A stretch of DNA of 64,000 nt, from positions 1,280,001-1,344,000 of the forward strand of contig CAVXGK010000002.1 in assembly GCA_963761305.1 (NCBI GenBank). The letters are read 5' to 3'. The position numbers were made by a program, and so were the translations under genes. Each line of letters opens with the position of its first letter. Position 1 is the first letter of the stretch. The stretch is from an uncultured Gemmatimonadaceae bacterium. Lineage in GTDB: Bacteria > Gemmatimonadota > Gemmatimonadetes > Gemmatimonadales > Gemmatimonadaceae. The notes under the pieces are model-generated. The model ran no database searches and was not told where the DNA came from. It was given only the letters and a program-made list of their open reading frames with translations. Positions 10,458-16,568 of this stretch are shown one piece after another.

Positions 10458-11048
10458 GTGAGCTCCCCCCTGCCTCAGGTTGTCGCTTCTAATCCGCGTG
10501 CCGTGGATCGTCAGCTCGTCGCTCGTTGTCTCGGCGGTGATGGTGCCGCCGAGCGGGAGCTGTACGACGCCCACGTGGACCGGATCTACCGGCTGATGCA
10601 TCGGATAGCCGGCGACGGCGACCTTGCGGCTGATTTCACCCAGGAGGCGTTCATCCGTGCGTTCCAACGGCTCGAGCAGTTCCGCGGAGATGCATCCCTC
10701 GCCACCTGGCTGCACACGATCGCCGTTTCCGTGGCGCTCAACGGGATGCGCAAGGTGAAACGCCTCAGGGTTCGCACCGACACCATGGACACCATCGCCG
10801 AGCTTCCCGCCGCCGGGTCGCCGGCCGGTCTCACGTCCGACCTCCGCACCCGACTCCACGCGGCGATCGACGCGCTGTCGGAGAAGCTTCGCCCCGTGTT
10901 CGTGATGCACGACGTCGAGGGTTACACGCACGACGAAATCGCCGGCGCGCTCGGCATACCGGTCGGAACGTCGAAGGCGCGCTTGTTCGACGCTCGCGCC
11001 CGGTTACGCCTCGCGCTGGCGGCGTTTGCTGGAGACCACATCGCATGA
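10458..11048 (+). CDS. ECF RNA polymerase sigma-70 factor
   Basis: Region 2 DFTQEAFIRAF...FRGDASLATWLHTI and region 4 VEGYTHDEIAGALGIPVGTSKARL. Confidence 0.96.
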   Translation: MSSPLPQVVASNPRAVDRQLVARCLGGDGAAERELYDAHVDRIYRLMHRIAGDGDLAADFTQEAFIRAFQRLEQFRGDASLATWLHTIAVSVALNGMRKVKRLRVRTDTMDTIAELPAAGSPAGLTSDLRTRLHAAIDALSEKLRPVFVMHDVEGYTHDEIAGALGIPVGTSKARLFDARARLRLALAAFAGDHIA

Positions 11049-11821
11049 ACAACGACCATTCGAACCGTGCCGACGAGCTGATCGCGCGAGCTGCACGCGA
11101 CTACAACGAGCCGGGCATCGTTCCGCGCGAGGAAATCTGGAATCGCATCGCCGACGCACGTCGTGTGGCGAGCGTAGCGCCGATCGCGTCCCGATCGCGC
11201 CGGATGCCCGGTTGGGCGTGGCCCGCGCTGGGCGTGGCGGCCGCCGGGTTGGTCGCAGTGGGCGTGGCGATCGGACGTAGCGTGGAGCGCTCGCAGTCTC
11301 GAAGCCCGCAGAAACCGTCGATCGAAACGGCGCGGCACGATTCGAACGCCACGACCCGCCAACCGAACGCCGCTATCGTGGAGCAGCCGCGCAACAGCGC
11401 CCCCAGCCTGCGCGCGCCGGTGCCCGACAGCCAGCGCGCCGCGCCCGTCGGCGAGGAGGCCAACCCCTCGCCGGTCGCGTACCAACTCGCCCTGATCCAG
11501 CATATCGCCGGCAGCGAGGCGATGATCACCGCCTTCCGTGCCTCGGCTCGGCGCGGCGACGTCGACGCGCAGCTCGCGACGTGGTCGCGCGATCTCCTGG
11601 GCGAAACGCGGATGCTCGAGAGCTCGGCGCCGCCCGGCGACGCCACGATGAAACGCCTGCTTCAGGATCTGGAGCTCGTGCTCGCCCAGATCGTTCAGTA
11701 CACGAACCACGACACGCACGCGCCGGACGACCTCGATCTGATCGAACGGTCGATCAAGCATCGCGCGGTGATGTCCAACCTTCGCACCATGTCCACCGGC
11801 CGTCTGCCGAGCGGGACGTGA
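11045..11821 (+). CDS. Putative single-TM anti-sigma factor
   Basis: ATGA overlap with the sigma gene, short cytoplasmic N-terminus, and TM helix WAWPALGVAAAGLVAVGVAIG. Confidence 0.75.
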   Translation: MNNDHSNRADELIARAARDYNEPGIVPREEIWNRIADARRVASVAPIASRSRRMPGWAWPALGVAAAGLVAVGVAIGRSVERSQSRSPQKPSIETARHDSNATTRQPNAAIVEQPRNSAPSLRAPVPDSQRAAPVGEEANPSPVAYQLALIQHIAGSEAMITAFRASARRGDVDAQLATWSRDLLGETRMLESSAPPGDATMKRLLQDLELVLAQIVQYTNHDTHAPDDLDLIERSIKHRAVMSNLRTMSTGRLPSGT

Positions 11822-11842
11822 ACGATTCGATGAGGAATCAAT

Positions 11843-13192
11843 ATGCGTAAGACTCTCATGATGGCGTTCGGCGTAGCGGCGATTACCGCGTTCGCGGCGG
11901 CGGGAGGCGCGCAAGCCCGCCCGGCCGCCGGCGATACCGCCGCCAGCGATTCCCTGTTCCGGGCGGCTCGGGCGATGCTCGACGGCCGCGAGTACCGGCG
12001 TGCCGTTGGCGCATTTGCGTCGCTGGCCGAGCGGTATCCGTCCACGTCGCGAGCCGGCGACGCCCTCTACTGGCAAGCCTGGGCGCTCTACCAGCTCGGC
12101 AAAGACAACGGAAGCAAGACCGACCTCGCCAAGGCACAGGACGTTCTGACGCAGTTCAATCAGAACGTCGGTAAGAACACGCAGATGGCGAACGACGCGA
12201 CGGATCTCTACTCGCAGATCCGCGCCGCGCAGGCCAAGCTCGGCGATGCCAACGCGGCGAGCGATATCGCCGAGCGTGCGGGAACGTTGCGGCAGCAGGC
12301 TGCGTGCACCGGGTCGCGCGCCGACGACGAGATGCGCATGGCGGCGCTCGACGGTTTGCTCAGCATGAATTCCGAGGACGCCGTGCCGATTCTCGAGTCG
12401 GTTCTCAAGCAGCGCGACCCGTGCAAGGCCGAGCTGCGAAAGCGCGCGGTGTTCATGATCGCGCAGAAGCGCGGGGCGTCCGTCGTGCCCACGCTGCTCG
12501 ACGTTGCGCGCAGCGATCCGAGCACCGACGTCCGCATCCAGGCAATCTTCTGGCTCGGATCGTCGCGCAACGAACAGGCCGTGCCGGCGCTCGATTCGGT
12601 GATCTTTCAGTCCAAGGACGACGACGTTCGGAAACAGGCCATCTTCGCGATGTCCCAGCAGCGGCGCGATCTCGCGCGCCCGACTCTGGAACGCGTCGCG
12701 CAGGACGAGAAGATGCCCGAGGACATCCGCGGCGACGCGATCTTCTGGCTCGGCCAGAACGGGATCGCCGACCTCGACTTCTTCAAGACGCTGTTCAAGA
12801 CGACGCACAGCCAGGAGCTGCGCAGCAAGATCCTCAACGGCGTGGCCACGGGTCGCGATCCCGGCGCGTCGGCGTGGCTGCTCGACATCGCGCGCGACAA
12901 GAGCTTCGACATCGAGACGCGCAAGAACGCGATCTTCTGGGCCTCGCAGCGGCACGAGATGGATCTCACGGTGCTCAACACGCTGTACGATCAGTCGCGC
13001 GGTGAAGACGAGCTCCAGGAGCACATCCTCTTCATCTACTCGCAGCGGCGCGAGCCGGCGGCGGTCGACAAGCTGATGTCGATCGCGCGAAGCGATCCGA
13101 ACACGGAGATGAAGAAGAAGGCGCTGTTCTGGCTCGGTCAGAAGAACGATCCGCGCGTCAAAGCGTTCATCCTGGAACTCATCAACAAATGA
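11843..13192 (+). CDS. Exported TPR + HEAT-repeat protein
   Basis: Signal peptide, BamD/YbgF-like TPR (ERYPSTSRAGDALYW), and repeated A(I/L)FWLGQ HEAT motifs. Confidence 0.9.
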   Translation: MRKTLMMAFGVAAITAFAAAGGAQARPAAGDTAASDSLFRAARAMLDGREYRRAVGAFASLAERYPSTSRAGDALYWQAWALYQLGKDNGSKTDLAKAQDVLTQFNQNVGKNTQMANDATDLYSQIRAAQAKLGDANAASDIAERAGTLRQQAACTGSRADDEMRMAALDGLLSMNSEDAVPILESVLKQRDPCKAELRKRAVFMIAQKRGASVVPTLLDVARSDPSTDVRIQAIFWLGSSRNEQAVPALDSVIFQSKDDDVRKQAIFAMSQQRRDLARPTLERVAQDEKMPEDIRGDAIFWLGQNGIADLDFFKTLFKTTHSQELRSKILNGVATGRDPGASAWLLDIARDKSFDIETRKNAIFWASQRHEMDLTVLNTLYDQSRGEDELQEHILFIYSQRREPAAVDKLMSIARSDPNTEMKKKALFWLGQKNDPRVKAFILELINK

Positions 13193-13959
13193 CGCCGCGC
13201 GCCGTCGCACTTCTCTGCCTCGCCGCCGCACCACTGGCACCGCTGGCACCATTGGCGGCGCAGTCGGTCGCCCAGCGCGCCGACGCGGTGCGCGACGGCA
13301 CGGTCCGGCTCACCTATGCGGCGCGCCCGGGTGTCTGCGGCAACGGTGACGAAGGGGGGGGCGTCTCGATCATGAGTCACCGCGGCGACAACGCGTACTG
13401 GGGATCGCGAGCGTGCGAGACCGGCCCGGTGCGCGTGTCGATCGGGCGGGCGGACAAGCAGACGGTCAGCGTGCGCAAATACGTCGGCGGCCGGTGGCCC
13501 GCGTCCTCGGACGCGACGGACCTCGGTGTCGTCGACGCTGGCGAAGCGGCGCGCTACTTGTTGTCCATCGCCCCGTCGCTCGGCGGCCGAAACGCGAGCG
13601 ACGCGGTCGTCGCCGCGGCGATCGCCGACGTTCCGACGATCGCGCCCGAGCTCACGCGGCTGCTGCAGAACGGCGACGCGCCAATCGAAGTCCGCAAGGA
13701 CGCGCTGTTCTGGCTGGGCCAGAGCGACATCGCGCCCGCGGAGCTGGCGAAGCTCTACGATCGGGGGCAGCCGTTCGCCCTGCGAGAACACTGGACGTTC
13801 GTGCTCTCGCAGCGGCACGAGGACGCGGCGCTCGACAAGCTGATCGACATCGCGCGCTCGGATTCGGACACCGAGATTCGCAAGCGCGCGATGTTCTGGC
13901 TCGGCCAAAGCCGCGACCCGAAGGCGATTCAGTTCCTCCACGACATTCTTCTTCGCTGA
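13189..13959 (+). CDS. Exported HEAT-repeat protein
   Basis: Signal peptide, YAARPGVCG N-domain, and ALFWLGQ / AMFWLGQSRDP motifs. Confidence 0.9.
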   Translation: MTPRAVALLCLAAAPLAPLAPLAAQSVAQRADAVRDGTVRLTYAARPGVCGNGDEGGGVSIMSHRGDNAYWGSRACETGPVRVSIGRADKQTVSVRKYVGGRWPASSDATDLGVVDAGEAARYLLSIAPSLGGRNASDAVVAAAIADVPTIAPELTRLLQNGDAPIEVRKDALFWLGQSDIAPAELAKLYDRGQPFALREHWTFVLSQRHEDAALDKLIDIARSDSDTEIRKRAMFWLGQSRDPKAIQFLHDILLR

Positions 13960-13966
13960 GGCACGC

Positions 13967-14740
13967 ATGCGTCGAGCGCTCGCGATCCGGCTCTCACTCT
14001 CGCTCGCGTCCATCCCTGCGCCGGCGATTGGCGCGCAGTCGATCGCGCAGCGCCTCGCGGCCGCGGAACGTCCGGTGCAGGTCGTCTATCCCAGCCGTCC
14101 ATCGGCGTGCGGCGACGGACGCACGTACATCAACCACGTGCTCGATGATCGCAGCTCCTACACCAGCGACGGCAGCGAGGGACGGTCGCGCGGACCCTGT
14201 GTGCACGGACCGGCGCGCGTCGTCGCGACGGTCATGGGCGGTGAAGTCACGCGGCTACGCGCCTACGTCGGGCCCGTGCCGCCGTCGACCGACATGGAAA
14301 CGATAACCGCCAGCGCGGCCGATGCGGCGGCGTGGCTCGGCTCGTTGATCACGCGTGAGAACTCGCGCGTCGCGTCGAGCGCGATCTTTCCCCTCATCCT
14401 CGCCGACGCGCCCGATCCGTGGCCGCTCTTGCTGCGCACCGCGCGCGACAACGAGCGCAGCCAGAACGTTCGGCGCGAGTCGCTCTTCTGGCTTGGGAAC
14501 GGCGCCATCGCGCACCTCGGCCTCGAGGGCTCGCGCGACGACTCGCCGGACGACGAGATGCGGACGCAGGCGGTCTTCGTGTTGTCGCAGCGTCCGCGGA
14601 CTGAGAGCGTTCCGGCGCTGATCGACGTCGCGCGAACCGCCACGCACGCAGCGGCCAAGCGGTCGGCGATCTTCTGGCTCGGTCAGACGGGTGACCCGCG
14701 GGCCGCGGACGTCTTTGCCGAGCTGCTCGGACTACGCTAG
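13967..14740 (+). CDS. Exported HEAT-repeat protein
   Basis: Signal peptide, YPSRPSACGDG N-domain paralogous to the previous gene, and SLFWLG / AIFWLGQTGDP motifs. Confidence 0.9.
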   Translation: MRRALAIRLSLSLASIPAPAIGAQSIAQRLAAAERPVQVVYPSRPSACGDGRTYINHVLDDRSSYTSDGSEGRSRGPCVHGPARVVATVMGGEVTRLRAYVGPVPPSTDMETITASAADAAAWLGSLITRENSRVASSAIFPLILADAPDPWPLLLRTARDNERSQNVRRESLFWLGNGAIAHLGLEGSRDDSPDDEMRTQAVFVLSQRPRTESVPALIDVARTATHAAAKRSAIFWLGQTGDPRAADVFAELLGLR

Positions 14741-15520
14741 CTACGCTAGCAGCAGGAACGCGTCGTAGAGCGCGTGCGTCCACGCGGTAATGCCGAACCC
14801 GCGCAGCAGATAGAGGCCGCTGAAGGCGAGGCCGCTCAACGCGCGGAACACGAACGACTGCAGCTCGAGCTTGTCGCCGTACGGGCCGATGTAGTGGAAC
14901 GCCGAGAAGATCAGCGCGCCCGAGACGGCCGCGATGACGCCCGACGCACGCGCGCCGAGGCCGAGGAGAATGCGCGCGCCGGCGGCGATGCCGGTCACGA
15001 GCAGCACACGGAAGAAGAGCTCCTCGTAGAGACCCGCGCCGAGCGAGAGCATCAGGCGCGTCGGCCAGGTCGTTTGATCGATCGGGCCGAGGCTGAGCGC
15101 GTGGAGCGAACCAAGCAGCTTCGCCGTGGTGACGCCGACGACAATGCCGAACACGCTGGCGAGGAGGATCGATTCGCCGAGCATGCCGGCGAACACGCTC
15201 GGCCGGAGCGGGTCGCGATTGCGTCGCATGTCGCGCAGCACGAGGGCGATGCCGATCAGGACGATCACGGCGATGAACACCAGCGACCCGCGGCGTCCGG
15301 CGATGGCGGTGAACGCCGCGCGCAATAGCGCGTCAGCCCCGTTGCGCAGCTCGGGCTTGCCCGGCCGCGACAGGGCGGCGGCGAGCACCTCGTACCCGAG
15401 GAGCAGCGGGAGCGCGAAGAGGATGCTGTACCGATGCGCCCGGCTGACCTTGAAGTACGACCATCGGCGCGTGGAGGCGCGCCCGGCAGGCTTCGAGCGC
15501 GCGAGAGTCGCGGTGTTCAT
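14741..15520 (-). CDS. CPBP (Rce1/Abi) family intramembrane metalloprotease
   Basis: Motifs EELFFR, FSAFH and HALYD, with multiple TM helices. Confidence 0.92.
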   Translation of the reverse strand: MNTATLARSKPAGRASTRRWSYFKVSRAHRYSILFALPLLLGYEVLAAALSRPGKPELRNGADALLRAAFTAIAGRRGSLVFIAVIVLIGIALVLRDMRRNRDPLRPSVFAGMLGESILLASVFGIVVGVTTAKLLGSLHALSLGPIDQTTWPTRLMLSLGAGLYEELFFRVLLVTGIAAGARILLGLGARASGVIAAVSGALIFSAFHYIGPYGDKLELQSFVFRALSGLAFSGLYLLRGFGITAWTHALYDAFLLLA

Positions 15521-15552: not shown

Positions 15553-15581
15553 TTGCGGAACGGCGATCCATTCACTAGGGT
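15553..15581 (+). promoter_or_regulatory. Putative sigma70 promoter for a small RNA/sORF unit
   Basis: TTGCGG-N17-TAGGGT, with a second TACGAT/GATAAT just downstream. Confidence 0.45.
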
Positions 15582-15589
15582 ACGATAAT

Positions 15590-15785
15590 CGTCGCGCTTC
15601 GGCGACGCACGCGACACGTTCACCCGAAATCCGAGGAGGTGATCCATTGTCTAGCGGAACTCGTAACGGCAGGATCGCCGGAAATCGCTGAGCGATTGAG
15701 TCAGCTCGGCCGCCGGAAGCCTGCTAGTTCCGGTGAATTGAGAAATAGCGGGGCCACCGTGGAGACACGGTGGCCCTTGCTTTTC
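15590..15785 (+). ncRNA. Candidate structured small RNA or sORF transcript with a 13-nt complement of the 16S anti-SD
   Basis: AGGAGGTGATCCA at 15634-15646, a TTG-initiated 14-aa ORF at 15647-15691, nested stems, and an intrinsic terminator. Confidence 0.5.
15751..15785 (+). terminator. Rho-independent terminator
   Basis: GGGCCACCGTG-GAGA-CACGGTGGCCC followed by TTGCTTTT. Confidence 0.8.
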
Positions 15786-15874
15786 TGGTGACGCGACAAG
15801 TGGGTTGGCCGGCCACTCCGGGTTCGATGTCGCGAGCCACGTACGGCCCGCGCTCGACGACGGTGGCTGCCATC

Positions 15875-16030
15875 CGACGCCAGACGTCAGACCTGGCATT
15901 TTCGCGGCGAGGACCTGTCTTGGCGTGGTGAATCACACCGCGTCACGCCGAAACGGATGTCTGAGGTCAGCTGTCGGCTCCCGATTTCGAGCACGCAGCC
16001 GTACCACGCCCGCCAAGACAGACCTCAGAG
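15875..16030. repeat. REP-like imperfect inverted-repeat element
   Basis: CTGTCTTGGCG (~15914) pairs with CGCCAAGACAG (~16011), and TCTGAGGTC pairs with GACCTCAGA. Confidence 0.5.
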
Positions 16031-16058
16031 TGGCCGCGATCCAAACGCCGTCAGCTGT

Positions 16059-16568
16059 TCAAGCGCCCGTACTTCCAAATCCTCCGACGCGATCGGTCGT
16101 CACGCTCACGCTCCCGGCTTCGATTGCCAGCACCTCGAACCTCGCCAGCACCATCTGTGCAATCCGCTCTCCGTGATCGATCCGAACCGGCGCCGTCGTC
16201 GGATTCTTCACCAGCACCATCCACTCGTCGGGGAAATCGGAGTCGATCGTGCCCGGCGCATTGGGAATCGCCAGCCCTTTCTTGAACGTCGTCCCGCTGC
16301 GCGGGCGGATCTGCGCCTCGACACCCATCGGCAGGCGCGCCTTGAAGCCGAGTGGCACGAGCGCGGTCACACCGGGGGCAAGCGTGAACGATTCGACGGC
16401 GTGCACCGCGTCTTCCGTCCACGTGCGCTGCCCGTCGGAGCACTTGATCGACCGTGTGCGCACGTAGGCGCAGAGGTCGTAGCCGGCGGAGCCCTCCGTC
16501 GCGCGGCGCGGCGCGCGGGCGTCGTCGTGCAACAGTTCGACGGTGAGCGATTCCACGATGATCGTCAT
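16059..16568 (-). CDS. dut: dUTP diphosphatase
   Basis: Motifs SAGYDL, RPRSG, PGTIDSDF, ERIAQ and GGFGSTG. True start is ATG 16568, inside a longer spurious ORF. Confidence 0.95.
   Translation of the reverse strand: MTIIVESLTVELLHDDARAPRRATEGSAGYDLCAYVRTRSIKCSDGQRTWTEDAVHAVESFTLAPGVTALVPLGFKARLPMGVEAQIRPRSGTTFKKGLAIPNAPGTIDSDFPDEWMVLVKNPTTAPVRIDHGERIAQMVLARFEVLAIEAGSVSVTTDRVGGFGSTGA

Follow-up and report, generated by a model that had tools for sequence, protein, structure and literature searches.

A Gemmatimonadota variant of the rre small mRNAs with a predicted in-frame mimic of the 16S rRNA tail

Our analyses of a 64,000-nt stretch of DNA from an uncultured Gemmatimonadaceae bacterium (the window) indicate that the unit at positions 15553 to 15785 is, judged by its sequence, a Gemmatimonadota variant of the rre small mRNAs and not a new family. 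The new features are an in-frame mimic of the 16S rRNA tail, predicted to be able to cover the element's own Shine–Dalgarno (SD) sequence, and a second predicted partner for this mimic in the 3′ UTR. We propose that the element is a stand-alone rre-type mini-mRNA in which chiefly the RNA does the work, switching between two states and being opened by the 16S tail; we put the probability of this reading at about one half. Promoter, extended SD, weak start codon, TCT second codon, short frame, mimic, 3′ arm and terminator are conserved together. The unit and its neighbors comprise the following features.

15553..15582, plus strand: predicted promoter TTGCGGAAC-N14-TAGGGTA, with a sigma-70-like −35 box (TTGCGG), 17 nt and a −10 box (TAGGGT)
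15590..15607, plus strand: 5′ leader hairpin of the minimum-energy fold, with cgtcgcg...cgcgac-like arms in genus homologs
15620..15633, plus strand: A/C-rich flank preceding the SD, in which G15633 makes one possible G·U pair with the 16S tail in the co-fold
15634..15646, plus strand: extended SD AGGAGGTGATCCA, directly next to the start codon, with 13 Watson–Crick pairs to the 3′ end of the genome's own 16S rRNA
15647..15691, plus strand: 14-codon frame with TTG start, TCT second codon and TGA stop, its length kept in relatives
15672..15679, plus strand: internal 16S-tail mimic GGAUCGCC, with predicted partner GGUGAUCC at 15638–15645
15655..15732, plus strand: alternative long hairpin of the frame with the 3′ UTR, taken from the fold, with two-sided changes in related elements; it excludes the SD:mimic helix
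15750..15785, plus strand: intrinsic terminator of 11 Watson–Crick pairs, GAGA loop and U tail, terminator-like on the minus strand too
14741..15520, minus strand: gene for a CPBP/Rce1-like membrane protease (PF02517), divergent neighbor outside the unit
16059..16568, minus strand: dUTPase gene (PF00692), convergent neighbor outside the unit

The coordinates that an earlier note on this DNA had given for the SD and the TTG frame were confirmed. The promoter it proposed, TTGCGG-N17-TAGGGT, is present (TTGCGG at 15553–15558, TAGGGT at 15576–15581, 17-nt spacer), and the motif TTGCGGAAC-N14-TA[G/T]GGTA, spacing included, recurs in 25 of 25 genus loci, although a strict consensus promoter scan of the region gave 0 promoter-like sites. 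We infer a transcription start near 15588. Reading the boxes instead as an alternative-sigma promoter, GGAAC-N16-GGGTA, which we take to be SigB/SigF-like, was rejected as unsupported; the genome has four sites at that spacing against zero to four at others, and no stress regulon was evident among its genome sites. The sole second genome site of GCGGAAC-N14-TAGGGTA (G000:C2:896732, minus strand) precedes a 537-aa protein with a signal-peptide-like start. At the other end of the unit, the predicted 11-bp terminator hairpin was borne out, with its stem at 15750–15777 and a modest U tail, TTGCTTTTC. A terminator-like hairpin is present in 95 of 104 Gemmatimonadota loci.

The CPBP gene lies upstream of the element and the dUTPase gene downstream, each in 23 of 25 genus loci. 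Since many sister-family elements also adjoin a CPBP gene, the element could be imagined as a cis-acting leader or attenuator for the protease. We consider this highly improbable. In the genus, the CPBP gene precedes the element in divergent orientation, but in the sister family it follows the element on the same strand, a change that suggests an independent gene. The terminator is here followed by a convergent gene, and neither computed fold alters the terminator stem. Between terminator and dUTPase gene, at 15800–16050, lies an imperfect inverted-repeat element of ∼250 nt that may be REP-like or a miniature mobile element; the genome contains about ten copies of 70 to 80% similarity. The repeat element seems absent in many genus loci, where the dUTPase gene is ∼160 nt from the SD. 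On the far side of the CPBP gene, window positions 10458–14740 hold frames that we take to be an ECF-sigma-like factor, a putative anti-sigma factor and three secreted proteins that resemble one another; a search found HEAT repeats in the last of the three.

The exact 13-nt complement to the 16S 3′ end and the polar 14-codon TTG frame abutting it, both noted earlier, are as described. Searching both strands of the 5.2-Mb genome yielded two copies of AGGAGGTGATCCA, one in the element and one at the genome's own 16S 3′ end, against a chance expectation (Markov) of 0.06 to 0.09 per genome. The homolog search that the earlier note had called for, by BLAST and motif, was positive. Specifically, BLAST found the element in 24 of 24 genus genomes, with promoter, 14-codon TTG frame and terminator kept together in all 24, and in 3/8 and 0/8 genomes of two other families; each of the 28 matched genomes had one match. 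The pattern AGGAGGTGATCCWNTG occurred in 97 of 401 phylum genomes and its reversed control in 1, a tally that includes one unpublished genome dropped from all later counts. A covariance model detected the element in 50 of 121 family genomes, and it was absent from the results of this search for the remaining 71. The element is thus common, but not found everywhere.

From ∼100 AGGAGGTGATCCWNTG matches, 70 loci were taken and 69 used. The second codon, which was not part of the query, is TCT in 55, another TCN in 8 and TTT in 1, and 5 loci resemble chance matches; by comparison, of the 175 Ser codons counted in seven genes of the window, one is TCT. The start codon is TTG in 52 loci and GTG in 14. 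A scan with the 19-nt core gave at least 120 matches, which among the matches listed are mostly from Alphaproteobacteria, with 15 titled Gemmatimonadota and a few from Gammaproteobacteria and others. Four elements in Gammaproteobacteria-titled records (Pseudohongiella, Woeseiaceae and others) share the core and have ATG-start frames of 25 to 26 codons; they fall outside the range given in the available text of Hahn et al. In two Azospirillum records, the core opens a frame of 59 to 60 codons with a signal-peptide-like start rather than a tiny frame. Many Gemmatimonadota elements carry a conserved leader motif, CGCCC...TGTTCCACC, 20 to 25 nt before the SD, whose possible pairing partners are GGGC in the frame and the SD itself.

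The available text of Hahn et al. (PMC5711450) describes rre genes for Alphaproteobacteria only, as rreB in Bradyrhizobiaceae and rreR in Rhodobacterales. There, rreB is a 165-nt RNA with a 17-nt SD, a GTG start and a 14-aa product; it cosediments with 30S subunits, is weakly translated and has no known function. Removal of the start codon extended its half-life from 10 to 37 min. Overproduction by 20-fold left growth unchanged, and ribosomes far outnumber rreB. The RreB and RreR peptides are unstructured, and a 60-nt fragment of the rreB frame accumulates free of ribosomes. Ribosome association required the 5′ extension of the SD, as a 14-nt derivative was mostly soluble. A hairpin over most of the rreB SD and the start codon had already been predicted in that study, and cloning of the full leader without the frame was unsuccessful, an outcome that fits a frame neutralizing the SD but proves nothing.

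The element shares with rreB and rreR the plan of a stand-alone transcript, here with predicted promoter and terminator, and an SD extended up to the weak start codon of a small frame, the TTG following the 13-mer directly. The core AGGAGGTGATCCA-N-TG-TCT is common to both, as primers in Table S2 of Hahn et al. show CCA-GTG-TCT; rreB likewise has 14 codons, and GGATCGCC occurs in rreB frames too. In the computed hairpin of the element, as in rre genes, the SD extension and the start codon would be hidden, with the 5′ SD bases free. The element differs in phylum, in its TTG start and in its 16S complement, which comprises 13 Watson–Crick pairs plus one G·U, whereas rreB and rreR have 16 to 17 and rre genes are characterized by at least 16 nt. 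Its leader is ∼46 nt long with a hairpin, compared to ∼11 nt in rreB; its mimic ends 9 nt rather than 3 nt before the stop codon; and its peptide is unrelated to RreB save for a short R/G-I-A stretch. The main text of Hahn et al. describes neither a second mimic partner nor two states for rreB. The element is probably a true homolog of rreB and rreR. Convergence is conceivable because the 16S sequence dictates most of the core, though not the TCT. Our search of mostly open-access literature found no paper on the element outside Alphaproteobacteria, and the available part of one preprint (10.1101/2025.09.11.675593) mentions neither rreB nor CC2171.

The earlier note had recognized no family, but the core is that of rreB/rreR and of the 5′ end of Rfam CC2171. 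The Rfam check it suggested gave a weak match to CC2171 (RF01867; 30.5 bits, E = 7e-4), which lies below the gathering score of 75. Nine of 10 other Gemmatimonadota loci scored 20.8 to 35.6 bits and one had no match. Two rreB loci scored 41.7 and 28.3 bits, also below the cutoff; the Rfam family thus represents one branch of a wider class. CC2171 is a Caulobacter small RNA validated by Northern blot in Methylorubrum, as stated in the available text of that report (bioRxiv 10.1101/2022.01.24.477521). It has the same 5′ core, a frame closed by long-range pairing with the 3′ UTR and a terminator; its Rfam consensus differs in showing no more than a 2-bp hairpin within the SD, and no SD:frame helix.

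The earlier note had offered a ribosome-binding or sequestering small RNA as one interpretation. Stand-alone ribosome binding is consistent with the conservation of the element and with cosedimentation of rreB with 30S subunits, but the 20-fold overproduction of rreB without growth change makes bulk sequestering doubtful. A related idea is that, during dormancy for instance, the RNA is a stoichiometric cap or decoy that parks 30S subunits or protects the 16S 3′ end, with the frame letting a ribosome clear it. A complement of 13 to 17 nt would cover the single-stranded tail, and a single match in each of 28 matched genomes fits this idea, as does the 30S association of rreB. We nevertheless judge it unlikely, given the excess of ribosomes over rreB, the unslowed growth on overproduction, the 71 family genomes without a found element and the behavior of the 5′ extension. 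For the last point, 40 of 80 genomes yielded a 16S tail, and one lone doubtful match was set aside. The complement, counted with G·U pairs, reaches 16 to 17 nt in 10 of the 39 Gemmatimonadota genome pairs, and the six that reach 17 nt belong to a family other than that of the source genome. Across the genomes compared, the extension follows the host tail only partly; it ignores it in the genus, and UAA-tail hosts have no matching extension, the complement staying at 14 nt in 13 of 13. The 13 nt upstream of the SD are 70% A+C in 107 Gemmatimonadota loci and 68% in 102 others. Other small RNAs also act on ribosomes, but the element differs from them in retaining a start codon, a reading frame and a stop codon, and it would bind in the manner of an mRNA.

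The other interpretation in the earlier note, a highly translated micropeptide, fared badly: 66 of the 69 starts are TTG or GTG, the peptide is not kept across the phylum and rreB is weakly translated. The frame has 14 codons in 25 of 25 genus loci and in all 30 model-search loci shown, whereas lengths across the phylum are 11, 14, 19 to 24 or 25 codons. TAA, TGA and TAG all serve as stop at codon 15; three stop codons at one position indicate that start and stop are clearly selected and hence that translation matters, while the peptide sequence seems secondary. In 22 genus loci the peptide, which is polar and has no membrane helix, is almost invariant; it differs in 3 others, and across the phylum the sequences are dissimilar. 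The RNA, more so than the peptide, is likely the working part of the gene.

We rate as rather unlikely the alternative that the peptide is the product and the folds serve only to limit its level, in the manner of the SD-sequestering hairpins of type I toxin mRNAs. The fixed 14 codons and the selected start and stop would suit it, as would the genus subtype, in which 6 of 10 codon-change types are synonymous, and a second subtype of the 14-codon class, in which ARIA is nearly fixed. RreB ends in LAGIAR, and the present class has R-I-A-x-x-R. Within the 14-codon class, changes in the mimic and its surroundings are mostly synonymous, which leaves selection on the peptide some probability. Against it stand the varied lengths (11 to 25 codons) and sequences within one phylum, conserved nucleotides that are read in two frames, the unstructured RreB and RreR peptides and the absence of a growth effect on overproduction. 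In the available text on aapA3-like type I toxin mRNAs (PMC6733600), a metastable hairpin with an in-frame partner likewise hides the SD during transcription; those mRNAs encode a hydrophobic toxin and have an antisense antitoxin, whereas the peptide here is polar and the SD extreme. A minus-strand promoter scan, a weak test for an antisense partner, gave no promoter-like site.

Viral sequences also bear on the peptide. Eleven of 32 viral matches place the same exact 19-nt rre-type site, with a TTG start, before an ordinary 65-aa gene (protein start LSTTVFDVL) in which the internal mimic is absent. The site thus presumably starts real proteins there, and an extended SD alone is no marker of a noncoding role; this phage gene family is a natural control. 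A phage origin of the element was considered and rejected: six other viral matches are rre-type genes of alphaproteobacterial kind, and none belongs to the present class. The viral contigs that carry these six may include host DNA next to prophages; rreB itself adjoins a tRNA gene.

Conservation inside the frame centers on a recurring motif, G[G/C]-G-[A/G]-U-C-G-C-C, which is a near copy of the 16S sequence GGAUCACC and the complement of the element's own GGUGAUCC. In 84 distinct Gemmatimonadota frames, the best duplex of GGUGAUCC within the frame averages −12.2 kcal/mol, compared to −6.6 kcal/mol for shuffles; a count of 7/8 pairs would by itself be weak, as shuffled longer frames reach it in 30 to 45%. 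The mimic, located by position or by an upstream anchor (anchors were picked by eye), lies in one reading frame in 40 of the 84 and in another in 44, within frames of 11 to 25 codons whose peptides are largely dissimilar, and it ends 8 to 14 nt upstream of the stop in 79. In one locus the frame is shifted and the mimic kept. At mimic positions 2 to 8, 4 of 5 possible pair-keeping changes occur against 2 of 16 pair-breaking ones, but every pair-keeping change is a transition, a type of substitution that is frequent in any case. In the 19- to 24-codon class, the pair at position 1 is lost in 39 of 39 members. SD:mimic pairing is complete in 15 diverse 14-codon elements (120/120 cells), and among 18 loci new from the model search 17 have 8/8 pairs in register and one has a known 1-nt shift, a count biased because the covariance model used to find them contains the helix.

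Covariation was examined, as the earlier note had recommended. Pair counts in the 15 elements revealed no two-sided change in the SD:mimic helix, because the SD strand is invariant in Gemmatimonadota. Elements from outside the phylum, most of them alphaproteobacterial, show covariation of the final SD base with the base opposite it, which form A:U in 40, U:A in 7 and another combination in 5 (n = 52; 19 of 71 elements lacked a unique anchor and were left out). The U:A change costs a Trp to Arg replacement, and the seven cases are probably about two independent events. Taken together, elements outside Gemmatimonadota (n = 99) have a weak mimic signal, at −8.3 vs. −6.8, and the signal is mostly weak or missing in rreR-type elements of 18 codons. 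The long hairpin has two-sided changes at 3 of 19 pairs; 2 of 500 shuffles reach its covariation score, which close kin inflate, and newly found loci have further GC-to-AU double changes in it. This 3′ arm does not explain conservation of the mimic, as the central U of the mimic pairs with it in only 5 of 14. RNAalifold gave no useful structure on a 35-sequence alignment, because two subtypes are out of register, and pairs were instead counted on the 15-sequence subset with anchors. A mimic kept in two reading frames despite differing peptides, and having a second partner in the 3′ UTR, leads us to predict a two-state switch.

The RNA of 15588–15785 folds with z = −4.3, and 0 of 200 shuffles are as stable. 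Of the nested pairings in the earlier note, GGAACT/AGTTCC (15656–61/15726–31) and GGCAGG/CCTGCT (15668–73/15720–25) are in the minimum-energy fold. A third, AATCGCT-G-AGCGATT, was discarded: it needs a 1-nt loop, is absent from the fold, which uses GCTGAGC/GCTCGGC in its place, and is not conserved. Part of the SD is paired in this minimum-energy fold, but with the leader instead of the mimic. Computed energies for the window RNA are −87.5 kcal/mol for the closed state, −91.1 kcal/mol for the long hairpin and −84.9 kcal/mol with the SD fully free. GGCA at 15668–15671 may lengthen the SD:mimic helix over UGUC. The closed fold is computed to dominate until ∼15721 has been transcribed. Across 97 elements, SD:mimic pairing exceeds P = 0.5 in 91 of the nascent RNAs (mean 0.89, shuffled 0.32) and in 62 of the full-length RNAs. 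When the SD was constrained to stay open, 10 or more frame bases paired with the 3′ UTR in 88 of 96 elements. Co-folding with the genome's own 16S tail yields the long hairpin, with a gain of 9 to 16 kcal/mol depending on the free-tail length assumed.

Transcript data were sought in five RNA runs with a word share of 0.04, four of which were examined as assembled contigs. These match relatives only, one contig of 152 nt within 15602–15737 and others that pass the promoter and may be DNA. Contigs of relatives give no start, end, strand or level and were not counted as support.

Under the switch model, the mimic would pair with the 3′ half of the SD during transcription and cover most of the start codon, while AGGA would stay free as a toehold in the closed RNA. 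The 16S tail of a free 30S subunit could then invade from the toehold, and the 3′ UTR would capture the displaced mimic, forming the long hairpin that starts ∼9 nt into the frame. By analogy with rreB, the 30S may then be held in a tight, slow initiation complex, slowed by pairing that runs up to the start codon, by the TTG and by the hairpin that begins 9 nt downstream in the frame. Base-pairing that reaches the UGG at the foot of helix 45 would presumably interfere with placement in the P site. A rare round of translation would unwind the long hairpin, after which the RNA may close again or be cut and decay. As a guess, its job would be sensing idle 30S subunits with a small, single-turnover output rather than soaking up ribosomes in bulk. 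By analogy, the 30S binding, weak translation and start-codon-dependent decay in the available account of rreB (PMC5711450) would count for the switch, and the lack in the element of the 5′ extension that rreB requires would count against it. The ribosome-free rreB fragment, which would contain the mimic, could instead suggest a trans-acting base-pairing small RNA or fragment, whose mimic or another loop targets mRNAs while ribosome binding sets its level. That is improbable, however, as GGTGATC-type targets are scarce in this genome, GGAGGTGAT has 25 genome sites with few at gene starts by eye, and the loops vary across classes.

The switch reading extends to a wider proposal, tentative and somewhat doubtful, that rre and CC2171 RNAs form one old, cross-phylum class of RNA toehold switches, triggered by the 16S tail and reading out the pool of idle 30S subunits. 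In such a class, the tail mimic would shut the RNA, a free 30S would displace the strand, and one round of translation would reset or destroy it. Since its description in 2016 (Hahn et al.), rreB has been without a known job. Comparison with a copy in a distant phylum shows which features persist (core, TCT, stop codon, mimic and both competing folds) and which do not (the peptide), and this contrast turns the open role of rreB into specific mutations testable in Caulobacter or Bradyrhizobium. Should the switch prove real, it would be an RNA device found in nature whose trigger is the rRNA of the ribosome itself.
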